NCBI GenBank assembly: GCA_903828655.1
Contig: CAIKMX010000023.1
Coordinates: 1 to 50,617 of the forward strand
Direction of reading: 5' to 3'
From: an uncultured archaeon
GTDB taxonomy: Archaea; Nanobdellota; Nanobdellia; Pacearchaeales; GW2011-AR1
DNA length: 50,617 bases
Part shown: positions 1-49,115 of the stretch, piece after piece
How positions within the stretch are numbered: the stretch's first letter is position 1
Layout of the letters: each line of letters starts with the position of its first letter
Notes under the pieces: generated by a model
Seen by the model: the letters and a program-made list of their open reading frames with translations, nothing else
Told to the model about the DNA's origin: nothing
Databases searched by the model: none
Position numbers and translations under genes: made by a program

Positions 1-75
1 AAACACCAATTTCAAAGGAAAGTTGAACTTTAAGAAAACCTTGGTTGTCTTAAGTTTCTAAAAAGAAAAGAGTGA
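1..75 (+). repeat. Repeat module A (AAACACCAATT...TTCTAAAAAGAAAAGAGTGA) with a module F copy (16..54) nested in its left hairpin arm. It ends at the stop codon of 76..642.
   Basis: Flanks match module A at 18947..18996, 36164..36216 and (reverse) 48914..48967. The inner 39 nt matches F copies at 2863..2901 and 23786..23824. Confidence 0.75.
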
Positions 76-642
76 TTACATCCCCTCAATAAGCTTCGCG
101 TCATTAAACTTTCCTAAAGATTTGTAAATCTCAAGAAGCTTTTCCTTAACCTGTCTCTTCTCAAGCTCATCAAGGTTCATCTTTATTAGATGCTCATAAA
201 ATCTCATAGCATTTCCCCTCTTTCCCTTCCTTTCCAAATCTTGTGCAGCAAGCATATAGATATTCTTTCTTGCAAGTTTAACATTAGCTCTCTGAGGATC
301 ACTTGCTTCCCTCATTGCACGAACAAACATTTGCTCACTCTCATCAATTCTTCCAACTTTTGAATAAAGCTCAGCAGCCTTAAGATAGCTCTCAATTTTA
401 TCCTTATAAGTTATGTCAATCCCTGCACCATTCTCATAAGCCTTTGCAGCCTTATCCCACAACTTTTGTTCCTCATATAGCTCTCCAAGTGTCCTCCATA
501 AAAATCTCTTCACTTCGAATGTAAACGCCTTGTATCCCAGTGCACTCTCTAGATAAGAAATCTTGTTTAAAGGAGTGAGCATCGCTCTAAGTTTCTCTTT
601 TATCTCACCTACAGTAGTCTCTCTAACTTGTATCACCATCAC
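76..642 (-). CDS. TPR-like helical repeat protein (hypothetical)
   Basis: 188-aa ORF with repeated A/Y/L-rich helix pairs (WDKAAKAYE, AAELYSKVGRIDESEQMF, AMRFYEHLI). TTAAATA (minus sense of 661..667) lies about 20 nt upstream of the ATG. Confidence 0.55.
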   Translation of the reverse strand: MMVIQVRETTVGEIKEKLRAMLTPLNKISYLESALGYKAFTFEVKRFLWRTLGELYEEQKLWDKAAKAYENGAGIDITYKDKIESYLKAAELYSKVGRIDESEQMFVRAMREASDPQRANVKLARKNIYMLAAQDLERKGKRGNAMRFYEHLIKMNLDELEKRQVKEKLLEIYKSLGKFNDAKLIEGM

Positions 643-698
643 CTAGAAACTTTTAGTGGTTATTTAAGGATTTATGTTCTGCAGAACAACTATCTAGA

Positions 699-759
699 AG
701 GAAGGTGAAGCCAGTCATGTGACCGAAGTCTTGCATTATAAAAACCTTGGTTTCCTGGG
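699..759 (+). repeat. Repeat module F, extended variant (AGGAAGGTGAAG..GTGACCGAAGTC..AAAACCTTGGTTTCC)
   Basis: Same head and tail as other F copies. It also carries the same about 24-nt internal insert as 2191..2252, containing a GAC-CGAA-GTC mini-hairpin. Confidence 0.7.
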
Positions 760-830
760 CAAAGGATTTATGTGGTGAAATGCTATGGAGAAATATAAAA
801 ATGAAACAGAAAATAAGTTACCAACACGTT

Positions 831-899
831 AAGAACCACAAACATTCATAAAAAGTCAGATAAGAGCGAGGTGTCTTGACGAAGTCAGACATCGAGCGA
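831..899 (+). repeat. Repeat modules B + C. The C hairpin at 865..899 ends 4 nt from the stop of the RelE pseudogene.
   Basis: AAGAACCACAAACATTCATAAAAA, then AGCGAG-GTGTCT-T-GAC-GAA-GTC-AGACAT-CGAGCGA. Confidence 0.8.
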
Positions 900-902
900 A
901 GT

Positions 903-1169
903 TCATTTCCCATAAACTACATCATGGTGATCATAATCTAAAAGTCTTACAATCTTCAAGGGTTCAAGTATTTCATAAACTATGACAAAATGCCTTACAT
1001 GAACACCTCTCTGCCCCGCCATGTTTGCGGTTAGTGGCTCTCCAATTTGAGGATTTTCAAGAATTTCCTTGATCTTCCTGCTTAAAATTTCAAACTGCAG
1101 CCTATCTCTTTTAGAAATCTTAAAAAACAGTTTATCAAGATGTTTAGGAATTTAGACTCTATAACTCAT
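903..1169 (-). pseudogene. RelE/ParE-family toxin gene with an in-frame TAA at codon 6
   Basis: Minus-strand frame reads MSYRV*IPKHLDKLFFKISKRDRLQFEILSRKIKEILENPQIGEPLTANMAGQRGVHVRHFVIVYEILEPLKIVRLLDYDHHDVVYGK*. The ATG at 1169 is 8 nt after the antitoxin stop, and the TAA is the complement of 1152..1154. Size and layout are typical of RelE/ParE. Confidence 0.65.
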
Positions 1170-1176
1170 AGCAAGT

Positions 1177-1413
1177 CTATTTGTACCTCTTCTCAAAATC
1201 TGAGAAGCCACCAATATTGATAAATTTTCCCTTTCTTATAGAATCTAATCTTTGCAAATATTCCGCTCTTACTTTTGGCTTTTCTTCAATCTGTGCTTTT
1301 ATAAAAATATCAACCTGCTTGCTCATGCTCATACCATTCTGCTTGCAAAAATCAGAGAACTTCCTATAAGTTTCTTCTTCTATATTAAACGTTTTTAATA
1401 CCATAAATAACAT
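1177..1413 (-). CDS. Ribbon-helix-helix (CopG/RelB-like) antitoxin
   Basis: 78 aa. The N-terminal strand-helix-helix pattern KTFNIEEETYRKFSDFCKQNGMSMSKQVDIFIK lies directly upstream of the RelE-like frame. The true start may be the ATG at 1404. Confidence 0.6.
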   Translation of the reverse strand: MLFMVLKTFNIEEETYRKFSDFCKQNGMSMSKQVDIFIKAQIEEKPKVRAEYLQRLDSIRKGKFINIGGFSDFEKRYK

Positions 1414-1466
1414 TAAATAACATTATTTAAATAGTTTTCGGATGAAAAAGTCCTAGAGCGTAGATA

Positions 1467-1530
1467 GTTTGGTAATGTTCCAATCCGTTGACATACTTGT
1501 CCATTCAGTTTTAAGACCCGGCAACTTAAA
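1467..1530 (+). repeat. Repeat module D (GTTTGGTAATG..CAATCCGTTGACATACTTG..TTTTAAGAC..GGCAACTTAA)
   Basis: Core CAATCCGTTGACATACTTG is shared with 31590.., 32486.. and 49086... Confidence 0.8.
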
Positions 1531-1572
1531 ATGTTTTGAATAAAAAAAGCATTTTACATATAAAGAATTAAA

Positions 1573-1656
1573 CCCTACAAAGATGTTAAAATTTTAGCAC
1601 ATTCATAAAAATCGTCCATGCGAGCGCGAGAGCGACAGAGGAGCGGAGCGCGAGCA
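1573..1656 (+). repeat. Repeat modules B + C-prime (GCGAG-rich variant)
   Basis: GATGTTAAAATTTTAGCACATTCATAAAAA matches 22722.. and 23722... It is followed by GCGAGCGCGAGAGCGACAGAGGAGCGGAGCGCGAGCA, as at 23762../23829... Confidence 0.75.
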
Positions 1657-1712
1657 TCAATTACACCTTTCATCACAATAATTATTATAAACCTCATTCA
1701 ACTTACTAAAAG

Positions 1713-2114
1713 ATGCCCTATAAACCAACCCCCACAAGAGGAGAACAACTAGAAGACAATGGATTACAATTATTTCTTCAAACGGGTTTAGGCGAACTAG
1801 AACCGGGTAACCGCCCAAGAGAAGCCCTTCAAAAAATGGCTGAAGAACTAGAGAGATACGGTACCCAAAACCCAAGAAATTATGCATTTAAAGTTTTTAA
1901 CACATACCATTCTTTCTGTCATCTAAGAGGATTCGCAGAAAGACTAGGACAACCAAGACTGCAAAAAGTAGCAGAAGCATACAGAAGATTAGCTTCCGGA
2001 AAAAAATTAAACCCTGACTTAAGGAGAGTTAGAGAATTTGTTAAAGGACTTAGTAATTATATTGCTAACGGTTCTTGTTTTTCCGATGATTCTAGAAGAA
2101 AAGCAGTAGCGTAA
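1713..2114 (+). CDS. Hypothetical protein (Arg-rich orphan)
   Basis: 133-aa ORF between two repeat blocks. No recognisable motif. It was chosen over the overlapping minus ORF 1657..1887 because it is longer. Confidence 0.45.
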   Translation: MPYKPTPTRGEQLEDNGLQLFLQTGLGELEPGNRPREALQKMAEELERYGTQNPRNYAFKVFNTYHSFCHLRGFAERLGQPRLQKVAEAYRRLASGKKLNPDLRRVREFVKGLSNYIANGSCFSDDSRRKAVA

Positions 2115-2160
2115 AAAAATATTCTAAAAAGTCTTAACAAAAAAGTTGAACAAGTCGTTA

Positions 2161-2340
2161 AAGAATTAGCACATTCACAAACCATCTTAAAGGAAAGTTG
2201 AACCGGTGATTTTGACCGAGGTCTTGCTTTCTAAAACCTTGGTTTTCTTAGGAAAGCGAGCATCGTGACGAATGTCCGATGCGAGCGAAAATCGTTTAGT
2301 AACACTACAATTAGTTCACAATTCAACAGCTCCAAAATTA
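2161..2340 (+). repeat. Composite repeat B - F(extended, 2191..2252) - C (2255..2288) - D (2294..2340)
   Basis: AGCACATTCACAAACC; AGGAAAGTTGAAC..AAAACCTTGGTTTTCTTAGG; AGCGAG-CATCG-T-GAC-GAAT-GTC-CGATG-CGAGCGA; GTTTAGTAACAC. Confidence 0.8.
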
Positions 2341-2358
2341 ATCAAGCAAATACAGCAT

Positions 2359-2820
2359 CTACCTAGACTTTTTTTCTTGGATATATAATGCAACTTCTGC
2401 ATCAGACCCAGAATCCTTAATATTAGCCCGAATATAAGGATCAAAAGGTTGTGGAACAATTACCCAAGGATGACTGCCCCTAACCTTAACCTCTAATCGA
2501 CGCCCTCCATCTCCTTCAAAGATATAAGCACGCCTTCCCGGTTCAAGAGATTCCTTATCTGAATCTTCCCCTGCGATATGTGAAGCAGAAACTTTATACT
2601 TCCCATTACCTAACGCAAAACCAAAATCCCTGCAAGAACGACGAACTACTAAATTCGCTTGAATTTCTTGAGTGATTGGAACACGAGTAGAAGAGACCAT
2701 ACTACCCAGTCGATTCAATTCTCCCGCAATCTGTCCTAAGAGCGAATAATCATTCGTAGTATCCATACTTTCCGCAGTATTATTCAATTTATAAACTTTA
2801 TCCCAGAATTTCGTCACCAA
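2359..2820 (-). CDS. Hypothetical protein
   Basis: 153-aa ORF with no recognisable motif. It occupies the position downstream of tuf where many archaea encode S10, but it is not S10-like. Confidence 0.45.
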   Translation of the reverse strand: MVTKFWDKVYKLNNTAESMDTTNDYSLLGQIAGELNRLGSMVSSTRVPITQEIQANLVVRRSCRDFGFALGNGKYKVSASHIAGEDSDKESLEPGRRAYIFEGDGGRRLEVKVRGSHPWVIVPQPFDPYIRANIKDSGSDAEVALYIQEKKSR

Positions 2821-2862
2821 CCAGAAACAAAGTTCCCACTAATCATTCATTCCTACATTAAC

Positions 2863-2901
2863 AGGAGAGTTGACCTTCAAGAGAACCTTGGTTCTCTTAA
2901 G
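2863..2901 (+). repeat. Repeat module F (AGGAGAGTTGACCTTCAAGAGAACCTTGGTTCTCTTAAG)
   Basis: Contains a perfect AAGAGAACC/GGTTCTCTT inverted repeat. It aligns with 16..54 and 23786..23824. Confidence 0.8.
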
Positions 2902-2945
2902 AAAGAGATAGGATATAAATAAAAAAATATCCAAAATAAAAAAAA

Positions 2946-4241
2946 TTACTTAGTAATAAGCTTTTTCTCTACGAGAGACTTGCAAACGCCTGCAGCTACT
3001 GTAACACCAGCATCTCTAATAGCAAATCTTGACATGTTTGGATTGTCCACTGCGGTTTCCAAAACAAGATTTCCTATAGGCTTGATTCTTACAATCGCTA
3101 CATCTCCATTCTTCAAAAAGTCTGGATTTTGCTGAGCAACCTGTCCTGTAGCTGGATCTAGTCTTGCTTGTAGTTCTATGAACTGGCAAGGCACCTGAGC
3201 TGTATGTACATGAAATACCGGAGTATAGCCCTTAGCAATAACAGTTGGGTGATTGATTACTGCAATTTGTGCTGTAAACTCTTCAACTATCTTCGCTGGC
3301 TTTGTTGCATCGCAGATTACATCACCACGAGCAACGTCCTTCTTTCCAATACCTCGTAAGTTGATTCCAACATTGTCTCCAGCTTCAGCTTCTGATAATT
3401 GTTCGTGATGAGCTTCGATACTTCGAACTTCACCCTCAATTCCAGTTCCGCTTCTTCCGGGTAATACAATAACCTTCTGTCCAACTTTCATGGTACCAGT
3501 CTCAATTTTTCCAACAGGAACAGTTCCAATTCCAGTGATTTCATATACATCCTGGATTGGCATACGCAAAGGTAAGTTTGTTGGCTTAGATGGTGCAGGA
3601 AATTTATCTATCTGTTCGAAAACAGTAGGTCCCTTATACCAAGCCATATGCTCAGATCGTTTCTTAACGTTATCGCCTTTCAAAGCTGATGCTGCAACGA
3701 ATTCTGTAGTGTCAGGTTTATAACCTGCTTGCTTCAAAACTGCTGAAACATCTTCCTTGACTTTCTTATACTTAGCTTCATCATAGCCAACAACGTCCAT
3801 CTTGTTGACGATTACTGCCAAGTTTTTTACACCCATAGTTCTTAACAACCATACGTGTTCTTTTGTCTGTGGCTGGACTCCGCCATCAGCTGCGACAACT
3901 AAAAAAGCTGCATCTGCCTGTGAAGCACCTGTAATCATGTTCTTAACGAAGTCTTTGTGACCTGGAGCATCGATTATAGTAACTTCAAAGTTAGGTGTCA
4001 TGATTTTCTTGTAGGAAAGATTGATTGTAACTCCTCTCTCTCTTTCTTCCTTAAGATTATCCATGACGTAAGCAAACTCAAAACCAGCCTTATTGTGCTT
4101 TGCTGCCTCTTCCCTGTGTTTTGTCATTTCCTGTTCAGACACCATACCACTATCGTAGAAAAGTCTACCTATCATAGTAGATTTTCCATGGTCTACGTGC
4201 CCTACGAAAACGACATTCATTATTGGTTTTTGTTTCGCCAT
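2946..4241 (-). CDS. tuf: Translation elongation factor EF-1 alpha
   Basis: GHVDHGKST, DAPGH and NKMD GTPase motifs over the full length. The start is placed at ATG 4241 (MAKQKPIMNVVFVGHVDHGKST) because the track start at 4274 is TTG. Confidence 0.95.
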   Translation of the reverse strand: MAKQKPIMNVVFVGHVDHGKSTMIGRLFYDSGMVSEQEMTKHREEAAKHNKAGFEFAYVMDNLKEERERGVTINLSYKKIMTPNFEVTIIDAPGHKDFVKNMITGASQADAAFLVVAADGGVQPQTKEHVWLLRTMGVKNLAVIVNKMDVVGYDEAKYKKVKEDVSAVLKQAGYKPDTTEFVAASALKGDNVKKRSEHMAWYKGPTVFEQIDKFPAPSKPTNLPLRMPIQDVYEITGIGTVPVGKIETGTMKVGQKVIVLPGRSGTGIEGEVRSIEAHHEQLSEAEAGDNVGINLRGIGKKDVARGDVICDATKPAKIVEEFTAQIAVINHPTVIAKGYTPVFHVHTAQVPCQFIELQARLDPATGQVAQQNPDFLKNGDVAIVRIKPIGNLVLETAVDNPNMSRFAIRDAGVTVAAGVCKSLVEKKLITK

Positions 4242-4332
4242 TTGAATTATATTTAATTTAGTTATAATACACAATAAAGTGTATGAATATCAAGTGTAAT
4301 TGCCATTTAAAAATCTAATGGTTTTAAATTAA

Positions 4333-16180: not shown

Positions 16181-16255
16181 GGCTCCGTAGCTCAGCCCGG
16201 TTAGAGTACTGGACTTTTAATCCAGGTGTCGCGGGTTCAAATCCCGTCGGAGCCA
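16181..16255 (+). tRNA. tRNA-Lys (anticodon UUU), no intron, CCA not encoded
   Basis: Acceptor GGCTCCG/CGGAGCC, D arm GCTC..GAGT, anticodon arm CTGGA-CTTTTAA-TCCAG, T arm GCGGG-TTCAAAT-CCCGT, discriminator A. Confidence 0.9.
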
Positions 16256-16307
16256 TAATGTTATTGAACAAAGTGAAATAACATTAATTCTGATTTGAAA
16301 ACGCGAC

Positions 16308-16394
16308 TGTCGCGGGCGAGTTTAGAGCTTTTTGACAATCTTAGAGTATATACAAAATGGTCTAGACGAGTAAAATCCACGTCGGAGCCATAAT
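16308..16394 (+). pseudogene. Degenerate duplicate of the tRNA-Lys 3' part, interrupted by about 56 nt
   Basis: TGTCGCGGG (16308..16316) equals tRNA 16227..16235. AAATCC-A-CGTCGGAGCCATAAT (16373..16394) equals tRNA plus trailer 16239..16259 except for one inserted A. No 5' half is present. Confidence 0.7.
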
Positions 16395-16466
16395 CGCAAT
16401 TCTATCATCCAGATATATATATCAAACAACAATAGTTTTTATAAAGCCCAATAATTAAAACAAAAC

Positions 16467-18946: not shown

Positions 18947-18996
18947 TTAGTTTCTTTCGCCCACCAATTCTTTCTTTTCTAAAGAAAGAAGAGTGA
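18947..18996 (+). repeat. Repeat module A, ending 2 nt from the nrdJ stop codon
   Basis: TTAGTTTCTTTCGCCCACCAATTCTTTCTTTTCTAAAGAAAGAAGAGTGA, containing a 10-bp hairpin TTCTTTCTTT/AAAGAAAGAA. Confidence 0.8.
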
Positions 18997-22795: not shown

Positions 22796-23632
22796 CTAAT
22801 CACACTCTCTAAAACTTTCAAATATCTTGCAAGCATTGCAAACATTTCCTGTAGAGGGCTCACCACAAACATCACACTTCTTTATCTCAAATCCTTCTTC
22901 TGCTCTCTTGCTTCTTAGCTTAGGCGCAATCTTTTGAAAGTTATTAACAATCTTTAGCTTTTGTTTAGCAGATAAATCCAGGGCTTTCAACCACGCCCTT
23001 GTATCAGTTCTATAAGTTTCAAAGGCACAAGGACATTTATCATAATTTATTTTAAATTTCTTTTTCAAAGAATAACTTCTAATCTCTTCTTCAGGAATGA
23101 AGAACAACGGCTTAACTCTCTGAACAAAGCCAATTTGTTTAACTCCCGTAGACGGCGCAGAATTAGCTCCAAGTAAAATATTTCCCTTAAGAAAGTTCAT
23201 CAAAACATTTTGAACCTCATCATCAAGGTTATGGCCCGTAACTAACACGTCAGCCCCAAGCTTCTTAGCATATTTATTTAATATCCACCTCTTAATAATT
23301 CCACAAACAGTACATCCCGTAAGATTTTTCTTTTTCTTCAGAACAGCCTTGATAAAACAAATCCCTTGCCCAAGCTCTTTCTTCAGATCTACTATATGCA
23401 ACTTAACACGAAGATTAGAACAAAACTCTACCATATTCTTCAAGTGAAGTTTACTCCACTCCCCAAGATGCAAATCAATCATCAATCCCTCAACGTTATA
23501 TCCAAGCTTGTGCAATATATACAATACGGAAGTAGAATCCTTTCCACCAGATAAGGCTACAAAAACTCTATCTTCCTTGCTAAAAAGTTTATACTTCACA
23601 ATTGTCTCGGATACTTTCTTCTCAATGTCCAT
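22796..23632 (-). CDS. PP-loop ATP pyrophosphatase, TtuA/NcsA/TtcA-like tRNA thiolation enzyme
   Basis: SGGKDS PP-loop, CTVCGIIKR...VTGHNLDDEVQNVLMNFLKG, and C-terminal Cys pairs CPCA and CDVCGEPSTGNVCNAC. Confidence 0.8.
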   Translation of the reverse strand: MDIEKKVSETIVKYKLFSKEDRVFVALSGGKDSTSVLYILHKLGYNVEGLMIDLHLGEWSKLHLKNMVEFCSNLRVKLHIVDLKKELGQGICFIKAVLKKKKNLTGCTVCGIIKRWILNKYAKKLGADVLVTGHNLDDEVQNVLMNFLKGNILLGANSAPSTGVKQIGFVQRVKPLFFIPEEEIRSYSLKKKFKINYDKCPCAFETYRTDTRAWLKALDLSAKQKLKIVNNFQKIAPKLRSKRAEEGFEIKKCDVCGEPSTGNVCNACKIFESFRECD

Positions 23633-23710
23633 AATATAATTTAGAATTACAACTTTTTAAAGATGAAGGAGAAAGAAAAAATAAACTGCTCCTAACAAAT
23701 TTAAACAAAA

Positions 23711-23840
23711 AACTTAGCCCACGATGTTAAAACATAGCACATTCACAAAACTCGCCCGTGCGAGCGCGGGAGTCTAACTTAACAGGAAGGTTGAACTTCA
23801 AGGGAACCTTGGTGCCCTTAAGGAACGGAGCGCGAGCAAC
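23711..23840 (+). repeat. Composite repeat: B, then C-prime split by a nested F copy (23786..23824)
   Basis: GCGAGCGCGGGAGTC (23762..23776), then F, then GGAGCGCGAGCA (29..40 of 238xx). Compare the uninterrupted C-prime at 1619..1656. Confidence 0.75.
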
Positions 23841-23848
23841 ACATACAA

Positions 23849-24238
23849 TCATTGATCTCTAACCGAATCCGCAATATCCCTATAAGAATCAAAATCTTTA
23901 TCATAAACTCCAAGTTCTCTTTTCAAAGCAATCTCCACCTTCTGAATTTCAAGCCGAAGCTTTCTAGTTTTTTCATCTGAATGAGAATATTCTTCAGATT
24001 GCTTAGGGGACATAATGGTTAATCCATGAATGACCCAACGGATATCATACATCCTCAATCCGACATCAACACCATAAAGTATTCCATAAGAAGAATCCAT
24101 ATTTTGCAGAGACTCAAAAAAAGTTTTAATCTTCTTTGAATCAATACTATCAAATTGTATCTCTTTTATGAAATTACTCAACACCCTATATAAAGAACTA
24201 TAGGCCTCCAACCTCTTTTCAAAAATCTTCTCTTCCAT
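23849..24238 (-). CDS. Hypothetical protein
   Basis: The ORF extends to 24307. The internal ATG at 24238 (MEEKIFEKRLE) has TTTATAAG about 30 nt upstream, so the shorter form is preferred. Confidence 0.45.
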   Translation of the reverse strand: MEEKIFEKRLEAYSSLYRVLSNFIKEIQFDSIDSKKIKTFFESLQNMDSSYGILYGVDVGLRMYDIRWVIHGLTIMSPKQSEEYSHSDEKTRKLRLEIQKVEIALKRELGVYDKDFDSYRDIADSVRDQ

Positions 24239-24335
24239 ATAACAAAAAAGATTATAGAACTTATAAACATTTTTAATAAAAATAAATGAACTAAACTTCC
24301 ACAACATTTATAAATACCCCAAAATAAAACATTAC

Positions 24336-25316
24336 ATGGCTGATGATGATGCAAAAAAAGCAGGCAAGGAAGTTAAAAAATTCTTTAGAAACTACTGGGC
24401 TATTGCTGCTGTTGTTCTAGCTATATTACTTGCACTTTCTTATTTCATTGGTCCTTTTGGAAACATTAGTGGAAAATCCGCAGGACAAAAGATTGTTGAT
24501 TTTGCTAAATCCCAAGGAGTCGATGCACAAGTCGTTAACGTTACAAGTCAAGGAAGCCTATATGAAGTGATTGTATCTATCGGAAATCAGACAGTTCCAA
24601 CTTATATCACAAAAGACGGAAAATATTTTATTTCCGCGCAAGGGATGGTTCCTCTAAGTGAAATATCTAGTCCAACAGATACTTCAGACAGTTCAACTTC
24701 AACTACCGAAATTCCTCAAACTGATAAACCTAAAGTAGAGCTATATGTATTCAGCTACTGCCCTTATGGAACTCAATCAGAAAAAGGATTAATCCCTGCA
24801 GCAAAATTACTAGGCGACAAGATAGACTTTAAGATAAGACAAATAGGAGCAATGCATGGAGAATTTGAAGCAATTGAAGCTCAAAGACAACTATGTATTG
24901 AACAAAACTATCCTACAAAATACCTCGACTATGCTCTTAAGTTTGCACTTGATGCAGGCGTTGGAACATGCGGCGGAGAAGCAACATGTGTAGCACCAAA
25001 GATAAATGCGATATACACAAGCTTAAGCATTGACAAGAACAAGATAGATTCATGTATGAACAAGAACGGAGCAGCATTATATTCTGCAGAAGAAGCAAAC
25101 GCACAAGCAAAGAGCGTCAGCGGCTCACCTACATTAATAATAAACGGTGTTGATGCACAAGCAGGAAGAGATTCCGCTTCATATCTTAAAGCTATCTGTT
25201 CTGCATTCACAACAGCACCCGCAGAGTGTTCACAAACACTTTCAGCAGTACAACCTTCAGCAGGATTTGGTTCATCCACATCTTCTGATGCGGCAAGTGC
25301 AGCTAGCTGCGGTTAA
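24336..25316 (+). CDS. Membrane-anchored DsbA/thioredoxin-fold protein with a monothiol CPYG site
   Basis: N-terminal TM segment (WAIAAVVLAILLALSYFIG), Ser/Thr-rich linker, YVFSYCPYGTQ at 24759..24770, and a cis-Pro region GSPTLIINGV. Confidence 0.65.
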   Translation: MADDDAKKAGKEVKKFFRNYWAIAAVVLAILLALSYFIGPFGNISGKSAGQKIVDFAKSQGVDAQVVNVTSQGSLYEVIVSIGNQTVPTYITKDGKYFISAQGMVPLSEISSPTDTSDSSTSTTEIPQTDKPKVELYVFSYCPYGTQSEKGLIPAAKLLGDKIDFKIRQIGAMHGEFEAIEAQRQLCIEQNYPTKYLDYALKFALDAGVGTCGGEATCVAPKINAIYTSLSIDKNKIDSCMNKNGAALYSAEEANAQAKSVSGSPTLIINGVDAQAGRDSASYLKAICSAFTTAPAECSQTLSAVQPSAGFGSSTSSDAASAASCG

Positions 25317-28407: not shown

Positions 28408-28478
28408 ATAGGGGTATCATAAATTTGGTTTATAAGGATTTATGTTGTAAAATATACATAACCATAAACTACAAGTTC

Positions 28479-29589: not shown

Positions 29590-29697
29590 ATAGCCCCGCC
29601 AGGATTCGAACCTGGGTCACCGGCTTCAGAGGCCAGTATCCATAGTCTCCATTACACCTTTATTGGCTTCATGAATTTGACCGCTAGACTACAGGGC
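29590..29697 (-). tRNA. tRNA-Gln (anticodon CUG) with an about 35-nt intron at a non-canonical D-arm position
   Basis: Minus-strand read: AGCCCTG-TA-GTCT-AGCGGTCAA-[ATTCATGAAGCCAATAAAGGTGTAATGGAGACTAT]-GGAT-A-CTGGC-CTCTGAA-GCCGG-TGAC-CCAGG-TTCGAAT-CCTGG-CGGGGCT-A. The anticodon and T arms are canonical. The exact intron borders are uncertain. Confidence 0.7.
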
Positions 29698-29955
29698 TAG
29701 ACCTGCTTACGCAGATAAAACATCTCTAGTCTATGAAGATGCTTCAAACTAACGAACCTGACTAGTTTTAAAAATCTTGCTAATTCAAACTTTTTAGTAA
29801 TGTAACACCACCCTTAACATCTTGGCAACATTAACAAAGTAGTTTAGGCAAAATTGTGAGTGAATTTATGAGCGGAGATTTTGCTATTAAAATACTCATC
29901 TTTCAAAGTTTTTTATTTTAAAAAACTTTATAACTACAAAATTCATCAATTAATC

Positions 29956-30483
29956 ATGGTAACAGAAAAAATAGCTGCAAACCTTATTGGGGATAGGATA
30001 TTCTCAAACTCCAAAGAAGCTCAAAACCTTTTTGCAAGTCAAAGATTCGGAGAGCAAATTGGAGAGAAAATATTCTATTCAATGTCTGAAGCACTCTTCC
30101 TAGTTGAACAAGGAAAGATGCAAATAAACGATTTTAAGAACAAGAAAATATCTCAAAAGGATTTAATGACAAAACTTCAAAGGATAGATAAAAAATTTAA
30201 AACAAAATACATGGTTTTCAAAGATCTAAGAGAAAAGGGATACATTGTAAAAACCGCATTAAAGTTCGGAGCAGAGTTTCGTGTCTACGAGAAAGGAAAA
30301 TCAATAGGAAAAGATCACGCGAAGTGGATTTTATTTCCAGTCTCAGAAACCGAACAATTGACCTGGCATGATTTTTCCGCGAAAAATCGTGTAGCCCATA
30401 GCACAAAGAAAAACCTTCTAATCGCAATAGCCGATGACGAAGGCGACGTTTCTTACTATGAAGTCAAATGGATAAGGCCGTAA
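29956..30483 (+). CDS. endA: tRNA-splicing endonuclease
   Basis: C-terminal catalytic domain LKFGAEFRVYEKG....DHAKWILFPV....W.DF....RVAHSTKKNLLIAI.D..GDVSYYEVKWIRP. The start is placed at ATG 29956 because the track start at 29881 is TTG. Confidence 0.88.
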   Translation: MVTEKIAANLIGDRIFSNSKEAQNLFASQRFGEQIGEKIFYSMSEALFLVEQGKMQINDFKNKKISQKDLMTKLQRIDKKFKTKYMVFKDLREKGYIVKTALKFGAEFRVYEKGKSIGKDHAKWILFPVSETEQLTWHDFSAKNRVAHSTKKNLLIAIADDEGDVSYYEVKWIRP

Positions 30484-30547: not shown

Positions 30548-31561
30548 ATGATTGACGTACAAGAGGTAAAACAGAAAATACTAAAGCTTCTGGATGAAAA
30601 GGGGCCAAGTCTTCCAATGCATTTATCCAAAGATGTCCAGCTATCCACGATATTTACATCAGCAATTCTAGCAGAACTTATTCATGAAAAGAAGGTAAGT
30701 CTATCAAAACTAAGAATCGGCTCATCACACCTATACCTCCTTCCAGGTCAAGAAAAGAAACTAGAAGAATTCTCAGACAATCTTTCAGGAGTAGAAAAAG
30801 AAGCCTACATGATACTAAAAGAAAGAAGGGTTTTAGATGATGAAAAACAAACCCCTGCAATCCGTGTCGCCCTTAGAGCAATAAAAGATTTTGCCACACC
30901 ATTAAGATATCAAGAAAAGATAGTTTGGAAGTACACTTTCGCACCAACAGAAGAAATACAAGAAATCCTTAAGAACAGAAAACCTGCGCAACAAGAAATT
31001 CCCCGAGAAAAAATAACTCCCCCCACTAATGAACAATTACCTCAAGATCCTATTCCAGCAATAATTGAAAAACCCGCTATCGAAGAAAAAGCAGAAAAAG
31101 AGATTGAAAAAATAGTAGAAGTTATTGAGAAACCTTTGGAGAAAAAAATTGAGCAAATCTTCGAAAAGCCAATTGAAACAAAAATCCACATAGAAAAACT
31201 AACTCAAAGGAAAGGTGAACTTCAGGAAAACCTTGGTTTGCATAAGAAGGACAAAAAATCAATTAACTTCCTTGAAGAAATCCGCGCTTACTTATATGGG
31301 AAAAACATCGAAATGCTCAACACTTTAGACATAAAAAAGGACGAGATAACTGCAATAATAAGGCAAAAAGAACGAGAACACCTCCTTGTAGCATATAATA
31401 GAAAGAGGGTATCTGAAAAAGACATTCTAAAGGCATACAAAAAAGCCCAATCCCTTAACCTCCCATATTATATACTTTTCAAGGGTTCTACAACAAAAAA
31501 GATGCTTGACACGATTAATGCCTATAAACAACTACTTGAAATCGATAACCTGGAACCCTAG
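30548..31561 (+). CDS. Winged-helix-like protein with an IEKP-rich low-complexity linker (hypothetical)
   Basis: 337 aa. The N-terminal region (ILKLLDEKGPSLPMHLSKDV...SHLYLLPGQE) looks wH-like. The central linker is EKPAIEEKAEKEIEKIVEVIEKPLEKKIEQIFEKPIE. The function is not recognised. Confidence 0.6.
   Translation: MIDVQEVKQKILKLLDEKGPSLPMHLSKDVQLSTIFTSAILAELIHEKKVSLSKLRIGSSHLYLLPGQEKKLEEFSDNLSGVEKEAYMILKERRVLDDEKQTPAIRVALRAIKDFATPLRYQEKIVWKYTFAPTEEIQEILKNRKPAQQEIPREKITPPTNEQLPQDPIPAIIEKPAIEEKAEKEIEKIVEVIEKPLEKKIEQIFEKPIETKIHIEKLTQRKGELQENLGLHKKDKKSINFLEEIRAYLYGKNIEMLNTLDIKKDEITAIIRQKEREHLLVAYNRKRVSEKDILKAYKKAQSLNLPYYILFKGSTTKKMLDTINAYKQLLEIDNLEP
31208..31246 (+). repeat. Repeat module F copy lying in frame inside CDS 30548..31561
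   Basis: AGGAAAGGTGAACTTCAGGAAAACCTTGGTTTGCATAAG aligns with the intergenic F copies and is translated as RKGELQENLGLHK. Confidence 0.7.
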
Positions 31562-33109: not shown

Positions 33110-33181
33110 GGCTGCATAGCTCAGTGGTAGAGCGCCTGTCTCATAAGCAGGAGGTCCCGAGCTCAATTCTCGGTGCAGCCA
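33110..33181 (+). tRNA. tRNA-Met (anticodon CAU; elongator or Ile2-type), with atypical T-loop CTCAATT
   Basis: GGCTGCA-TA-GCTC-AGTGGTA-GAGC-G-CCTGT-CTCATAA-GCAGG-AGGTC-CCGAG-CTCAATT-CTCGG-TGCAGCC-A. Confidence 0.85.
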
Positions 33182-33831
33182 TAATACCTCCCTAGTTTTT
33201 CTATTTGTTTAGGATTTATGAATCCAATTTCTTTAACAAATTTTTTGAGATTTTCTTTTCCATTCATTTGGAGTCTATACTGGTCTTGACGCATAAGAGG
33301 ATTCCCAAGTCCATCAAACTTGCGACGTTTAGATTTATAGAATTTACAATTGATTCCTCTAGAATTAAGAAAAATGCCTATTTCATTAATCAACCTTCTT
33401 GCGATACCATTAGCCTCAACCCGGGGATAAAGAGTTCCATTATTATCCGTTAAAACCAAAGAACCATCCGTAGCAAAAAACCCACTAATTACATACTTCA
33501 CAAGATTTTTTTCATAAAAAACTTTAGGGATAAATAACTTGTCTCCTTTCTTTCCAATAGGAAATCCAAAACTAGAAACAAAATCAAATAAAGAGTTTTT
33601 TATAAAGTGTAGATTAATAGCCCCCATCGAGGGTCTAAATCTGATTGGAATATCTTTGTCTATCAGTTTTTTTACACAAGGAATAAGCACCTCTTCAAAA
33701 AAAGGGATATCATCAGCCATACTACCTGCAACAAATACGGTCTTCCTCCTCTTACAGCCCAAACTCAAACAGCCATCTCCCAGCATTACCCCATAAAAAA
33801 ACGCAAAGTTTTTAGTTAATTTAAGAGACAT
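33163..33831 (-). CDS. Free-standing double-motif LAGLIDADG homing endonuclease
   Basis: Two LAGLIDADG motifs (FFYGVMLGDGCL and VISGFFATDGSL). 222 aa. The last 6 codons overlap the 3' end of tRNA-Met on the opposite strand. Confidence 0.8.
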   Translation of the reverse strand: MSLKLTKNFAFFYGVMLGDGCLSLGCKRRKTVFVAGSMADDIPFFEEVLIPCVKKLIDKDIPIRFRPSMGAINLHFIKNSLFDFVSSFGFPIGKKGDKLFIPKVFYEKNLVKYVISGFFATDGSLVLTDNNGTLYPRVEANGIARRLINEIGIFLNSRGINCKFYKSKRRKFDGLGNPLMRQDQYRLQMNGKENLKKFVKEIGFINPKQIEKLGRYYGCTEN

Positions 33832-33904
33832 ACTAAATAAAATACCCTTAAGTATAAATACTTTGCGCTCATAAACATCGAAGACAAAAAGTTAAAAATC
33901 ATAA

Positions 33905-34053
33905 GGCAGAGGTCGGGAGCGAGCTTTTAGGTCTGGACAAAAGTTCAGTGCAAGATTCTCACAGACCTAAATGCGAGTCGGCACCGAGCAATTCGCTTTG
34001 AGCGACTAGAGAATTAAGATAATCGCGAAATGCAAATTGCGAGACCCAGAGCC
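33905..34053 (+). other. G+C-enriched, helix-rich about 150-nt segment. Candidate structured RNA or an expanded module C derivative.
   Basis: Closing pairs GGC..GGTC (33905..33914) with GACC..GCC (34043..34053). There is a perfect 10-bp stem TTTAGGTCTG (33926..33935) / CAGACCTAAA (33962..33971). AGCGAG and CGAG motifs flank the stem. Confidence 0.3.
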
Positions 34054-34103
34054 ATTTAGCATACCGAAGATATAATTATAAACCTCAAAACTCAATAATC
34101 TGT

Positions 34104-36042: not shown

Positions 36043-36216
36043 GCGATTCCTCCACAAGAGATACCAAACCATTATCGCTCGCCCTTCGGGCTCGCTTCTC
36101 AGTATCGTCTCACTCCCTTAACATCTTTGTCCATTCAGAATTTAAAGCATTGGCAACACTAACTTAGTTTCTTTCTTGAAACACCAATTCTTTCTTTTCT
36201 AAAGAAAGAAGAGTGA
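36043..36216 (+). repeat. Composite repeat E - C(minimal, reverse orientation, 36075..36096) - D - A, ending at the stop codon of 36217..37083
   Basis: GCGATTCCTCCACAAGAGATACCAAACCA; TCGCTCGCCCTTCGGGCTCGCT; ..CCTTAACATCTTTGTCCATTCAGAATTTAAAGCATTGGCAAC; CTTAGTTTCTTTCTTGAAACACCAATTCTTTCTTTTCTAAAGAAAGAAGAGTGA. Confidence 0.85.
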
Positions 36217-42812: not shown

Positions 42813-45800
42813 TCAATTAAATAACATCTTCGCTTTTCTCTGTATTTCCTGTTCAAGTGCAACCTTCTTAGCATCCAACTCAGCTTCCTTCTTCTTCATC
42901 TCAGTCTTAAGTTTATCCTTATACTCTTCTCTCAATTCCTCTTTAAGCTTAATCGCTCTCTCCCCCAACTCTCTTCTTATCTGCGCTTCCTTTTCAGCCT
43001 CAAGTTTTGCTCTCAAAGCAGTCTCTTTAAATCCTAACTCTTCAACTTTGTTATCAACTTCCTTTTTCTTTCTATCATAATCTTCCTTAAGTGAATTTTT
43101 CAAGAACAAATATGCCTCATTATGTTTCTGTTTCATCTTATCAAACTCTCCTTTTTCTTGAGCAACCGTTCCCTCTATCTCCTTTTCTTTTTCCTTCAAA
43201 ACCTTTTTTAATTTTTCTTGTTCTTCCAACATCTTTTGAACTCTTCTCTTTAGAAGCATTTCTTTAAAACCCAAACTCTTTTTCTTTTCCAAAATCTTCA
43301 TCATAGACATCCTCTCACGAGCGTCCTCTCTTCTTTCTCTCATCTTAACCGCCCGAATCATTTCCCTCTCCACGGCTTTTTTATGCGCCTGCTCTCTCAT
43401 CTTTCTAATCTCCGCACTCTTCATCATTGCCTGCTCCTTTTCAGCGAGCTTCTTTTTGAGATGCTCTTCTCCCTCAGCGAGCTTCTTTTTGAACGTTTTT
43501 TCTTCTTCAGCAATTTTTTTATTCAATGCTTCGTGTTCCTCCGCAGATTTTTTTCTAATTTCCTCTCTTCTCTTCTCAAGTTCATTAATCTTCTTTTGAA
43601 CCTCTTCATGCAATGCCTTTTTCCTGCCTAAAACAACCTTATCCATCTTATCCCCTTTCTTCCTTGCCTCTTCCTCTGCTTCTTTCTTTATATTTTGAGC
43701 TTCATCTATCTCCTTAGCAACTTTGCTATTGAGTTCTTTTTCTTTTTCTCTCAAATCAGTTTTTAACTTTTCTTGATCATCTAACATCTTCTTTACTTTC
43801 TTTTTAAGAAGATTTTCTTTAAGAATCAAATTTTTCTTTTGTTCTATGATTTTTCTCATAGAAGTCCTTTCATGAACCTCTTCATGTTTCTTCATCGCAA
43901 CAAAATCCCTCATCATCTCCTTTTCTCTTACCGAAAGATCTTTTCTAAGCCCCTCTTCTCTTTCTGCAAAACTCTCCCTCAAGGCTTCCTCTTTCTCTGC
44001 AAGACTCTTTCTAAACTCTCTTTCTTCCTCGGCCAACTTTATACTCAATGCTTCGTGTTCCTCCGCAGATTTTTTCCTTGCCTCCAATTTTTCTTTCTGA
44101 AGCTCTTCTACTTTTCTTTTAACCTGTTCTTCAAGTTCATTAATCCTATGAGAAATAACCTTCTGCGCTTCCCTTTCAGCTCCCGCCTTCACTCTTCTAG
44201 CATCTTCAATCTCAAGAGCCATCCTTCTCTCAAGTTCAATCTCTTTCTCTTTAGAAGCCCTTTTTAGTCTAGCCTGCTCCTCTAATATTTTTTTAACTCT
44301 TCTCTTTAGAAGCATTTCTTTCAGACCCAAATTTTTTTTCTTTTCCAAAATCTTCATCATAGACATCTTCTTAAGAATATGCTCTTTTTTCTTCTCTATT
44401 TCAAGAGCTTTCATCATTTTCTGTTCTTTTCTTGCAAGATCTTCTTTGGCTATTCTTTCTTCCTTAGAAAGTTTCTCCATAAATGCTTTTTCTTTTTCTT
44501 TAGAATCCTTTTCCTGGGATGAAAGACCCTTCTTCATCTCAATTTGTTTCTTTAAAAATTCGGCCCTTATCTTACTCTCTTCATTTGAAAGACCCTCTCT
44601 CATCTTCTTCTCTTCTTCAGATTTTTTCCTTTCAAGCTCTTTTTCTTCTTCCAAAAGTTTTTTCTTAAATTCTTTCTCCTCTACGGCAAGCTTTCTCTCA
44701 AGAATCTCATGCTCGGAAGCAAACTTTTTCTTTGCCTCTTCCTTCTCATTCTCTATACGAGCTTTTGTTTTCTTAATCCTTTCTTCAAGTTCTTTTTCCT
44801 TATGGGAAGAAATCTTCCTTGCCTCCTCCTCCGCCTGTTTCTTTATCCTCTCGGCTCTCTCTTTCACACTAACAATATGCATCTCAAGCTCTTTTTCTTT
44901 TTCCTTTAAAGCTTTCTTTAATTTTTTCTGCGCATCCTCACGTAGTTTAATAGAATCAGAATTTTTCCTAACTTCATTCTCTTTCTCCATAATCTTCTTT
45001 CTCAAGATTTCTTCTTTTTCAAACAACTCTCTTCTAAACCCTCTTTCTTCTTCAGCTAACTTCTTATTCAACGCGTTATGCTCCGCAGCAGATTTTTTTC
45101 TCACTTCCAATTTCTCCTTTTCAAGCTCAGAAAGCCTCTTTTGAATCTGTTCCTCGATTTCTCTTTTTTTCTGAAGAACTATCTCATTAAGTCTCTCATT
45201 TTTCTTTCTCGAGTTCTCTTCAGCTTCCCTTTTTACTTTATGAGCCTCCCGTATCTCCCTATCAACTTGCTCATTAAGTTGCTTCTCTCGATTATAATGA
45301 AGTTTATTTAATCTTGCAACTTCCAAGGCAATCTCCTTCTCAAATCTCTCATGTAACTCATTCTTATGCAACAAGGATTCTTCATCAAACTTCTGCCTTA
45401 ATTTCTTTCTTTCATCAGTCAATTCTTGGACCATTCTCTTTTTCAAAGCAACTTTTGCATCCTCAAACTCTTTTTCTGCACGATGTCTAAGAATTGTTGT
45501 CTCTTCCTTTGTAAGCTTAACCTTTTGATCTTTCAATGCTTTATCCAATAAACTCTTAAATCTCCTCTCAACATCTTTCTTCAAAGTAGTTTCAACTCTA
45601 TTTTCATAATCCTCATGATACTTCTGTTCTAATGCACGATATTTTTCATTAAAGATTTTTTCATTAGAGATTAAATCTTCATGCAACTGCTTCTGAATCA
45701 TAGACTCTTTATTTTTTATTTTATCAGATAATGCAATCTTTATGTCATTTAATGACATATCAAAAGCTTCATTAGTAAGCAAATTAACTGAAGGATCTAT

Positions 45801-46235
45801 TCTCTTAAGGATTTCCTTCTTTCTCTCCTCCTCCCCCTTATGAGCCTCTAATTCCCTATGAAGCTTATTTAATTCCGAATGCAACAAATCCATTTCCTTC
45901 TCATAAGCTTTATTTTTAACGCTAACATGTTTTTTATTCTCAATCTCTTCTTTTAATGCCCTTATTTTCTTATCTACTTCAAGTTTAACATTAACAGTTT
46001 TCCTATGTTTTGGTTTATATCTTCCAGAAATTTTAGCTTTTAGAATTTTAAGCTCTCTCTCAATAATAGGAATATCAGAAACACTCTTTAATCTCGAACG
46101 AATCACTGACGCCTCAGCTTCATGCCCTCTAACGTTCAGCCCATTCAACTCTACCTTTAATTCCTCAAGTCTCTGAACGCCCTTACTAAAGATTTCAAAG
46201 TCCTTCCTCAAACTAGATTCAGCAGTTTTCACCAT
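42813..46235 (-). CDS. 1140-aa Glu/Lys-rich coiled-coil protein with 3-4 long internal tandem repeats
   Basis: No TM segment or NTPase motif is seen. Repeated blocks include KKSAEEHEALNKK[LI]AEEE..F.K.L.E.EE (four copies) and MSMMKILEKKK.LG.KEMLLKRRV.K.LEEQ (three copies). Confidence 0.8.
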   Translation of the reverse strand: MVKTAESSLRKDFEIFSKGVQRLEELKVELNGLNVRGHEAEASVIRSRLKSVSDIPIIERELKILKAKISGRYKPKHRKTVNVKLEVDKKIRALKEEIENKKHVSVKNKAYEKEMDLLHSELNKLHRELEAHKGEEERKKEILKRIDPSVNLLTNEAFDMSLNDIKIALSDKIKNKESMIQKQLHEDLISNEKIFNEKYRALEQKYHEDYENRVETTLKKDVERRFKSLLDKALKDQKVKLTKEETTILRHRAEKEFEDAKVALKKRMVQELTDERKKLRQKFDEESLLHKNELHERFEKEIALEVARLNKLHYNREKQLNEQVDREIREAHKVKREAEENSRKKNERLNEIVLQKKREIEEQIQKRLSELEKEKLEVRKKSAAEHNALNKKLAEEERGFRRELFEKEEILRKKIMEKENEVRKNSDSIKLREDAQKKLKKALKEKEKELEMHIVSVKERAERIKKQAEEEARKISSHKEKELEERIKKTKARIENEKEEAKKKFASEHEILERKLAVEEKEFKKKLLEEEKELERKKSEEEKKMREGLSNEESKIRAEFLKKQIEMKKGLSSQEKDSKEKEKAFMEKLSKEERIAKEDLARKEQKMMKALEIEKKKEHILKKMSMMKILEKKKNLGLKEMLLKRRVKKILEEQARLKRASKEKEIELERRMALEIEDARRVKAGAEREAQKVISHRINELEEQVKRKVEELQKEKLEARKKSAEEHEALSIKLAEEEREFRKSLAEKEEALRESFAEREEGLRKDLSVREKEMMRDFVAMKKHEEVHERTSMRKIIEQKKNLILKENLLKKKVKKMLDDQEKLKTDLREKEKELNSKVAKEIDEAQNIKKEAEEEARKKGDKMDKVVLGRKKALHEEVQKKINELEKRREEIRKKSAEEHEALNKKIAEEEKTFKKKLAEGEEHLKKKLAEKEQAMMKSAEIRKMREQAHKKAVEREMIRAVKMRERREDARERMSMMKILEKKKSLGFKEMLLKRRVQKMLEEQEKLKKVLKEKEKEIEGTVAQEKGEFDKMKQKHNEAYLFLKNSLKEDYDRKKKEVDNKVEELGFKETALRAKLEAEKEAQIRRELGERAIKLKEELREEYKDKLKTEMKKKEAELDAKKVALEQEIQRKAKMLFN

Positions 46236-48913: not shown

Positions 48914-49115
48914 TCACTCTTTTCTTTTTAGAAAAAAGAAAATTGGTGTTTCAAAAGAAAAACTAAGATAGCAAAACAAAAAACATTGCCAAGCCACCAA
49001 AGAACCAGACATATTACCAAAAATTTAGGCAAGAGCGAGCATTGTGACGAATGTCCGATTTCGAGCGACAGTTTGGTATCCTCTCAATCCGTTGACATAC
49101 TTGGCAACTCAAATA
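48914..49115 (+). repeat. Composite repeat A (reverse orientation) - B - C (49034..49068) - D
   Basis: TCACTCTTTTCTTTTTAGAAAAAAGAAAATTGGTGTTTC; AACATTGCCAAGCCACCAAAGAACCAGACATATTACCAAAAA; AGCGAG-CATTG-T-GAC-GAAT-GTC-CGATT-T-CGAGCGA; GTTTGGTATCCTCTCAATCCGTTGACATACTTGGCAAC. Confidence 0.85.

Follow-up and report, generated by a model that had tools for sequence, protein, structure and literature searches.

The DNA analyzed here (the window) comprises positions 1 to 50,617 of contig CAIKMX010000023.1. It is archaeal, has a G+C content of 36%, and carries most of its genes on the minus strand. Its source is a Pacearchaeota-like DPANN archaeon, and the nearest named homologues of its proteins are found in metagenome-assembled genomes labeled "Nanoarchaeota" or "Candidatus Pacearchaeota". 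Among its genes are those for aEF1A, EF2, fused RpoA and RpoB, ribosomal proteins S7 and S12, class II ribonucleotide reductase with NrdR, RFC subunits, RNase Z, Alba, and the tRNA-splicing endonuclease EndA (29881-30483); one tRNA gene contains an intron. The intergenic DNA is dense with recurrent hairpin modules, for which we retain the names A, B, C/C', D, and F given in a preliminary description of this sequence. We focus on F, a short hairpin element, and show that it is a separate structured module that has been gained at specific sites.

Anatomy and copies of F

F is 39 to 45 nt long and consists of a purine-rich conserved 5' segment (AGGARRGKTGAMC), a covarying 8-bp hairpin with the loop C(CTTG)G, and an outer, likewise covarying 2-bp clamp formed across a 2x1 internal loop. 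Five copies in these 50 kb match a strict pattern, and a second copy of a longer form, F-long, brings the count to six, all on the plus strand:

16-54, plus strand: F copy at module A, 67.1 bits; stands immediately 3' of the TPR gene (76-642, minus strand), in place of the 7 nt that form the left arm of A
699-759, plus strand: second F-long, overlooked in the preliminary description, upstream of the TPR gene promoter
2191-2252, plus strand: F-long, between modules B and C; identical in contigs L029 and L030
2863-2901, plus strand: solo F copy, 69 bits, downstream of the aEF1A gene (2946-4274, minus strand)
23784-23822, plus strand: focal F copy, AGGAAGGTTGAACTTCAAGGGAACCTTGGTGCCCTTAAG, 65.4 bits, placed by folding within the outer stem of a C' module; identical in contig L043
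31208-31246, plus strand: diverged F copy, 62.3 bits, inside the open reading frame (ORF) 30548-31561 that adjoins endA; in frame and without stops

The extended F that had been noted between B and C is thus present, and both F-long copies consist of F with a 24-nt insert right after GTTGAAC. A covariance model returned four full-length matches in the window (62 to 69 bits, all on the plus strand), and F is more frequent there than expected by chance (3 pattern matches, compared to 0 in 100 shuffles).

An alignment of 19 copies from 16 genomes, of which 4 copies lie in the window and 15 in other genomes, gave the consensus 5'-AGGA-R-R-G-KTGAMC-N1-(2 nt)-AAGxyAAC-CTTG-GTTy'x'CTT-A-N1'-G-3'. The 5' segment and the centre AACCTTGGT are invariant in this alignment, and in the stem, x covaries with x' and y with y'. 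Pairing is maintained in 93.7% of the cells, compared to 84.0% in shuffled alignments, and the covariation score of 0.280 (0.112 after shuffling) was reached by none of 500 shuffles. The outer pair N1:N1' occurs in all four Watson-Crick types (UA 8, GC 5, AU 3, CG 2). The arm changes that had been read as partly compensated in two copies are therefore compensated across the family as well, and this indicates that F is constrained to fold as a single strand, be it RNA or single-stranded DNA. The window copies are 76 to 85% identical to one another and 88 to 98% identical to those of other species; the higher cross-species identity likely arises because each copy stays near a constrained consensus. 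The idea of a mirror repeat or triplex was rejected: purines R6 and R5 of the 5' segment vary in step with x and y of the stem in 16 and 13 of 17 copies, respectively, and this signal collapses to about 6 subfamilies and is not significant.

Contigs L029, L030, and L043, which are independent assemblies of the same species from other samples, are 100% identical to the window over F at 2191-2252, 2863-2901, and 23784-23822, without any polymorphism at their F sites. The architecture of F, including the nested focal copy, is therefore not an assembly artefact. The ends of L029 and L030 correspond to window positions 1611-1619, meaning that same-species metagenome contigs break exactly at a C' repeat. 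L029 differs from the window only within aEF1A at one contig end (window 3948-4140), with 36 mismatches that all fall in the last 190 nt, a stretch that comes from a different strain. The repeat modules fragment metagenome assemblies, promote chimeric contigs, and cause gene starts to be mis-called.

F at orthologous sites and within other hairpins

The window was compared with a sister genome (contigs L027 and L039 to L041; TPR protein 91% and PP-loop ATPase 88% identical) and with a slightly more distant relative, L042 (TPR protein 87% identical). The cleanest case of an empty and a filled site is found downstream of aEF1A. There, both flanks align in L042 and a single gap of 37 to 39 nt coincides exactly with F 2863-2901, which lies in an ordinary A/T-rich spacer and is not bordered by any target duplication. 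In the sister (L039), the site downstream of the TPR gene reads CACCAATT-TTCTTTT-TTCTAAAAAGAAAAGAGTG and holds an intact A hairpin, whereas the window reads CACCAATT-F-TTTCTAAAAAGAAAAGAGTGA, so that F stands in place of the 7-nt left arm of A. F-long 699-759 is absent, together with about 40 nt of accompanying sequence, from both the sister and L042, and no F was found in about 8 kb of sister and L042 sequence. The in-ORF copy 31208-31246 lies within a 17-aa segment that is missing from the 44%-identical orthologue in L031. A separate pair comes from other genomes: two genes that are direct neighbors in L035 are separated by an F variant in L031.

The search for empty and filled pairs that the preliminary description had called for thus succeeded at three window sites (16-54, 2863-2901, and 699-759), each empty in the sister or L042, and at the L031/L035 pair. 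Because close relatives have the same sites without F, F is a genuine secondary insertion and, as had been proposed, an independent module. In the lineage of the window, F has been copied into new sites since the split from the sister.

Two of the window copies, including the focal one, lie within other hairpins. The features that bear on this nesting are the following:

23687-24277: 591-bp block comprising module B, the F-bearing C', and an ORFan gene (23849-24238, minus strand) with its promoter; absent from the sister (L027) and from more distant relatives
23760-23774, plus strand: left half of the focal C' hairpin, GCGAGCGCGGGAGTC, pairing with 23827-23838 via GC, tandem G.A, and GCGC
23827-23838, plus strand: right half of the focal C' hairpin, GGAGCGCGAGCA, pairing with 23760-23774
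1620-1656, plus strand: uninterrupted C', GCGAGCGCGAGAGCGACAGAGGAGCGGAGCGCGAGCA, the paralogous "empty" version, with a purine-rich loop of about 12 nt where the focal site has F
865-898, plus strand: typical module C hairpin, related to C', with a GCGAG...CGAGC clamp, a covarying stem, and a GAC-GAA-GTC apex
Starts at 2256, 22758, 31715, 32436, 32961, 41588, 42166, and 49034: other module C copies
36182-36216, plus strand: intact module A hairpin, the reference copy, directly after the stop of a minus-strand gene
18962-18996 and, reversed, 48914-48951: further module A copies, the reversed one an intact hairpin

Modules C and C' are closed by a clamp in which GCGAGC pairs with a second GCGAGC through G-C, C-G, and tandem G.A pairs, and they are therefore long hairpins. 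In the predicted fold of 23759-23843, the C' clamp is kept (UGC/GCA, GA/GA, and GCGC/GCGC) and F occupies the apical region. The continuous C' at 1620-1656 is indeed present, as had been stated, and folds with the same clamp around its purine-rich loop. The preliminary description was also right that a complete F splits the two C' halves at the focal site, but its coordinates for that copy were 2 nt too high. According to these folds, the focal case amounts to one hairpin nested in the loop of a second one. The module A flanks AAACACCAATT and TTTCTAAAAAGAAAAGAGTGA bracket F within positions 1-75, and the insertion falls at the loop and left-arm side of the hairpin. The claim that F replaces the left arm of A between shared flanks thus holds, with 48914-48951 as the intact reversed counterpart. 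In turn, the inserts of the F-long copies (2204-2227 and 712-735) carry TGACCGA(A/G)GTC, the apex motif of module C. Since F-long contains a C-like apex mini-hairpin, nesting is reciprocal, with C-like sequence in F and F in C'.

Among ten C copies, compensatory changes affect 8 of the 11 predicted pairs. The orthologous C hairpins at 865-898 and in L039 have wholly different middle stems, both of which still pair, and this difference reflects either unusually fast turnover or replacement of the copy. A GC-rich structured stretch at 33900-34060, which contains a long hairpin bordered by GCGAGC-type clamps and has no Rfam match, could be another noncoding RNA or a large member of the C family.

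The PP-loop gene adjoins a thioredoxin-like gene in the sister and in more distant relatives, and the window has the extra 591 bp between them, the entire block being an indel. As the sister is without the whole block, the focal F cannot be timed relative to C'. The ORFan gene of the block is called in public assemblies as 23849-24238 (129 aa); the mechanical ORF 23849-24307 (152 aa) is too long, and the 69 nt upstream of the called gene are sequence conserved with the sister. Exact-protein look-ups of 22796-23632, 24336-25316, and the over-long 23849-24307 gave no match, a scan of metagenome_contigs with the over-long ORFan (153 aa) found no relatives, and the ORFan cassette genes had no matches in Pfam, NCBIfam, PHROGs, or PADLOC. 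In L042, about 130 nt separate the TPR gene from aEF1A, compared to 2.3 kb in the window (643-2945). This interval holds the ORFans 1713-2114 (plus strand) and 2359-2820 (minus strand), small minus-strand ORFs, and modules D, B, C', F-long, C, and F. A database search with ORFan 2359-2820 found no homologue outside its own species, and neither ORFan of the interval matches any profile library. It seems that new genes come in jointly with repeat modules.

F in other DPANN genomes

When the GTDB species, each represented by one genome, were scanned for exact matches to the strict F pattern, 15 other DPANN species matched at one locus each. These belong to the Pacearchaeota, Woesearchaeota, and Micrarchaeia and range from 26 to 54% G+C, which shows F to be an ancient family common to the three groups. 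No GTDB genome had more than one strict-match locus, and expansion was seen only in the lineage of the window. Eleven bacterial pattern matches were without the right arm of F and were discarded as chance matches. With the same strict pattern, only one locus was found in metagenome_contigs and none in viral_contigs. Rfam 15 at the gathering threshold matched only tRNAs in the whole window, a permissive Rfam scan of window positions 1-3000, which include four F copies, returned nothing relevant, and no prior description of F was found in the literature searched. F is thus apparently an undescribed element.

Outside the window, F occurs in strikingly different contexts. It lies in the canonical position-37/38 introns of tRNA-Ser(GCU), tRNA-Gly(GCC), and tRNA-Arg(CCU), and in all three it begins at intron nucleotide 2, antisense to the pattern orientation. 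The Gly (L020) and Arg (L023) introns, from different genomes, are identical over a 40-nt F core, beyond which they differ, and it is this differing part that has to pair with the respective anticodon loop. F forms only the 5' core of the tRNA introns and is followed by an exon-specific 3' part that differs. A probable fourth tRNA intron, read by eye in L020, carries an F-long-type copy. In a 16S-tRNAAla-23S operon, F follows the 3' end of the 16S gene by 7 nt, and in a Trm5b gene an in-frame F adds 13 residues in a surface loop relative to PDB 5yac. Other copies are found beside other tRNAs, immediately before start codons, at assorted intergenic sites, and in tandem head-to-tail arrays (L014 and L022). 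The concern that F might always occur between the same flanks is dispelled by the range of these contexts, from tRNA introns and an rRNA spacer to ORFs and various intergenic sites.

Strict C-type hairpins are numerous in the window and present in the sister, but they are rare in other DPANN loci. As F is phylum-wide, the F family must be older and far more widespread than the lineage-restricted modules that host it. The view that F was inserted after the other modules had spread holds for the A site only; as a family, F far predates its hosts. Nor did F prove to be the younger and more uniform repeat that one might simply expect, the host modules being at least as homogeneous as F. We also considered that F is not separate at all, and that A and C' with F are longer ancestral variants from which the short versions arose by deletion. 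In favor of this view, the polarity of single indels is unprovable from two or three genomes, and the A region in L042 is even shorter than in the sister. However, F occurs alone and in many unrelated contexts, among them those in the 15 other species, several intact F-free copies exist in both the A and C families, and lineage-restricted hosts are at odds with a phylum-wide F. Because F occurs independently elsewhere, this explanation is effectively refuted, and we give it almost no credence.

The proximity of F to stable-RNA genes raises another explanation, namely, that F is mainly a functional RNA motif which binds a protein and serves to process or stabilize stable-RNA and mRNA transcripts. 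It would then be kept by selection, and its dispersal would be a by-product of recruitment and not a sign of selfish mobility. Phylum-wide sequence conservation with covarying pairs is in agreement with such a role, as are the enrichment in or next to tRNA and rRNA genes (L002, L006, L008, L020, L021, L023, and L028) and the shared orientation and start at intron nucleotide 2 in the three confirmed tRNA introns and the probable fourth one. In the window, four of the six copies are located 17 to 103 nt 3' of minus-strand genes, and for a fifth copy the distance to such a gene is about 400 nt. On the other hand, the positions of F are not conserved between species, three orthologous sites are empty in close relatives with no visible replacement, F is found in both orientations relative to flanking genes and tRNAs, and it is translated within two unrelated ORFs. 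Furthermore, F has no Rfam family, and mismatches in its stems do not indicate a sense strand (2 G.U and 3 A.C). We thus regard a primary role as functional RNA as possible but doubtful.

Several specific functions were rejected. A Shine-Dalgarno sequence followed by a hairpin was suggested by an ATG located 0 to 3 nt after F in L014, L015, L025, and L031, and this arrangement is found in none of the window copies. F as a bulge-helix-bulge intron was dismissed because inspection, without a dedicated search for such introns, revealed no pair of 3-nt bulges 4 bp apart. An intrinsic terminator was likewise rejected on inspection, as the hairpin in gene sense (minus strand) is followed by GTTCAACCTTCCT, with T runs of at most 3; such a role is also unlikely in view of the F copies in tRNA introns, because stopping transcription there would be detrimental. 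Also dropped on inspection were the readings of F as a K-turn, C/D or H/ACA box RNA, T-loop, origin recognition box (ORB), or integron attC site.

Other observations in the window concern tRNA genes. At 16181-16405, the tRNA-Lys 3' end (AAATCCCGTCGGAGCCATAA) has a second copy (AAATCCACGTCGGAGCCATAA) about 130 nt downstream, and the stretch separating the two holds a pair of small hairpins. Duplications of tRNA 3' ends around a small insert are also present in L028 (a 17-nt repeat, with an insert ending in F) and in L021, and they look like the remnant or miniature of an element integrating into tRNA genes. A LAGLIDADG-domain ORF (33163-33831, minus strand) overlaps the 3' end of tRNA-Met (33110-33181, plus strand) and may be a free-standing homing endonuclease beside a tRNA gene. 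At about 29590-29710 (minus strand), a tRNA-like sequence with more than one intron has clear acceptor and T-arm halves (GGTTCGAATCCTGG) and was missed by ARAGORN and Rfam. Elsewhere, the largest direct-repeat families of the window stem from a 1140-aa ORF (42813-46235) that matches nothing in Pfam and contains internal repeats spaced by about 500 to 555 nt. The end of the window holds two genes that are probably of toxin-antitoxin type, one with a PIN_2 domain (49660-50076) and the other for a HepT-like ribonuclease (50205-50537).

Spread of F and comparison with known systems

How might F reach new sites? We hypothesize, with moderate confidence, that F is a noncoding, nonautonomous, dispersed element that folds as a single strand and spreads at the DNA level, its hairpin being recognized in trans. 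A protein encoded elsewhere would recognize the invariant 5' segment and the shape of the hairpin, in a manner resembling the recognition of repetitive extragenic palindromic (REP) sequences or IS200/IS605 ends, which are read as folded single strands. On insertion, the target would undergo a small deletion or be duplicated to a variable extent, with no target-site duplication of fixed length, and the surviving copies would have been filtered to sites where an extra hairpin is harmless. The window copies are found in the apical loop or arm of C' and A, in the B-C spacer, in 3' flanks of genes, and in a low-complexity protein linker. Both in-ORF copies (the window ORF and Trm5b) are in frame and stop-free, which indicates that they are translated and not spliced. 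Spread at the DNA level is suggested by this translation and by the occurrence of both transcriptional orientations. The orientation of F relative to neighboring genes and tRNAs is mixed across genomes, and its orientation relative to local GC skew, 11 versus 7 across loci, is uninformative as to a sense strand.

Several observations weigh against this hypothesis. The window encodes no transposase, integrase, or reverse transcriptase, and neither an autonomous longer element nor a solo left or right F end was found in the window and 25 related loci. There is no consistent target-site duplication, direct repeats of 9 to 17 nt being present at only some copies. The target-site duplications for which the preliminary description had suggested looking were therefore not borne out, and a systematic search showed the flanking repeats to be of several kinds, namely, duplicated tRNA 3' ends, F units in tandem, and a promoter motif. 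Two of the repeat-flanked cases are duplications of tRNA 3' ends. The 12-nt repeats AAGGATTTATGT at 666-677 and 762-773, around F-long 699-759, are ambiguous, since they are also a recurrent promoter motif. Moreover, the insertion is not clean at A and C', where it replaces 7 nt and about 12 nt, respectively, and no empty orthologous C' was found for the focal site, so that the evidence there is paralogous and structural. An identity of 88 to 98% across phylum-level lineages fits a selected function equally well. Finally, at 7 of the 16 non-window loci a tRNA or rRNA gene either contains F or is no more than about 100 nt away from it, which could point to RNA processing. The suggestion that F is mobile thus stands in the sense that it moves independently of its host modules, but not in the sense of a transposon, given that neither a consistent target duplication nor a transposase in the window was found. 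A transposon-like mechanism and the claimed order of insertion are unproven.

The motif AAGGATTTATGT (ACATAAATCCTT on the gene strand) also occurs at 28447-28458. It is located just upstream of a TATA-like box in at least 2 minus-strand genes, one extra copy flanks F-long, and it is probably a shared promoter element.

The same irregular target sites could arise without dedicated machinery, if A and C' hairpins broke at their apex and repair, by microhomology or gene conversion, copied a short ectopic F template and left a small target deletion. The replaced nucleotides at A and C' are in agreement with this scenario, as are flanking repeats that are absent or variable (0 to 17 nt) and the head-to-tail tandem arrays in L014 and L022. 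In addition, the 3' flanks are often purine-rich like the 5' segment of F, and AGGAAAG is found on both sides of 2191-2252, as judged by eye and without statistics. However, the insertion at 2863-2901 is clean and lies in an ordinary spacer with no hairpin, and F has sharp boundaries that agree across many genomes, which would not be expected from random templated repair. We therefore consider templated repair unlikely.

Dispersed F copies might also be retroposed pieces of excised F-containing tRNA introns, or of other RNAs ending in F, that were reverse-transcribed and integrated. F is indeed the invariant core of introns in different tRNAs, and in several repeat-flanked inserts (L010, L021, L028, and window 699-759) it forms one constant end opposite a spacer that varies in length. 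In DPANN archaea, diversity-generating retroelements with their reverse transcriptases are reported to be common. Nevertheless, no such enzyme is encoded in the window, the window copies are without intron-derived flanks and have 5' extensions unlike intron sequence, and the 39-nt insert at 2863 is clean and has no flanking duplication. Retroposition is thus very improbable in our view.

Returning to an element recognized in trans, a bolder version would have F, as a hairpin of about 40 nt, form the sequence-defined core of a DPANN-specific mobile mini-cassette, recognized by a conserved protein and moving at the DNA level among tRNA anticodon loops, where it would create or remodel canonical introns, rRNA spacers, ORF loops, and the apices of other hairpins. 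We hold this to be a long shot, but if true, the cassette would be the first identified vehicle for archaeal tRNA-intron gain and F the first REP-like system in ultrasmall archaea. Whatever the route, F is a well-delimited element that can be aligned and whose filled and empty sites are real, and it connects dispersed palindromic repeats, in-frame protein insertions, and the gain or remodelling of archaeal tRNA introns. It also illustrates how a tiny, streamlined DPANN genome devotes much of its intergenic space to interlocking hairpin modules that turn over fast between close relatives.

Archaeal miniature inverted-repeat transposable elements (MITEs), such as those of Sulfolobus and haloarchaea, are 80 to 400 bp long, with terminal inverted repeats matching a parent insertion sequence (IS) and fixed target-site duplications. 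Like them, F is nonautonomous, dispersed, polymorphic in its presence among close relatives, and nested, as MITEs sometimes are. Unlike in MITEs, the inverted repeat of F is an internal hairpin beside an asymmetric 5' segment, no matching autonomous IS was found in the window and the 25 related loci, and there is no target-site duplication of fixed length (2863-2901 is clean, and elsewhere repeats are absent or 9 to 17 nt long).

Two bacterial families, the Rickettsia palindromic elements (RPE; 100 to 150 nt) and the Correia elements of Neisseria, which have terminal inverted repeats and a TA duplication, resemble F in being small palindromic repeats that insert in frame into protein genes and into RNA genes, at positions where the structure tolerates them, and persist for that reason. 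F differs from them in its length of about 40 nt, in having no fixed target duplication and no sequence relation to them, and in that only two in-ORF cases are known.

REP sequences and bacterial interspersed mosaic elements (BIME) of bacteria are associated with REP-associated tyrosine transposases (RAYT; Y1 HUH), whose genes typically have REP sequences on their flanks, and palindrome-associated transposable elements (PATE) are derivatives of IS200/IS605. The likeness to F lies in an imperfect palindrome of about 35 to 45 nt with a conserved single-stranded 5' sequence and a covarying stem, as found for F in the alignments. Both are also intergenic and often 3' of genes, form mosaics with other modules, and are noncoding, and F, like REP sequences, would depend on functions provided in trans. 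However, REP sequences are species-specific and high in copy number, whereas F is conserved across phylum-level DPANN lineages and mostly low in copy number outside this genome. In addition, F also occurs in tRNA introns and ORFs, its host is an archaeon, and no RAYT or TnpA gene is present in the 50-kb window.

The last comparison is with the transposition of tRNA-gene introns in the archaeal Thermoproteales (Fujishima et al. 2010), which is thought to spread at the DNA level by a mechanism that is still unknown (reviewed in PMC4090602). If a partner protein of F can be found by co-occurrence, archaeal intron mobility would become directly testable. As in the Thermoproteales, near-identical intron sequence is present in different tRNAs, here as the 40-nt core shared by L020 Gly and L023 Arg. 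In contrast to that system, the shared core is a hairpin element that is also found outside tRNA genes, all F cases are at the canonical position 37/38, and the hosts belong to a DPANN lineage.

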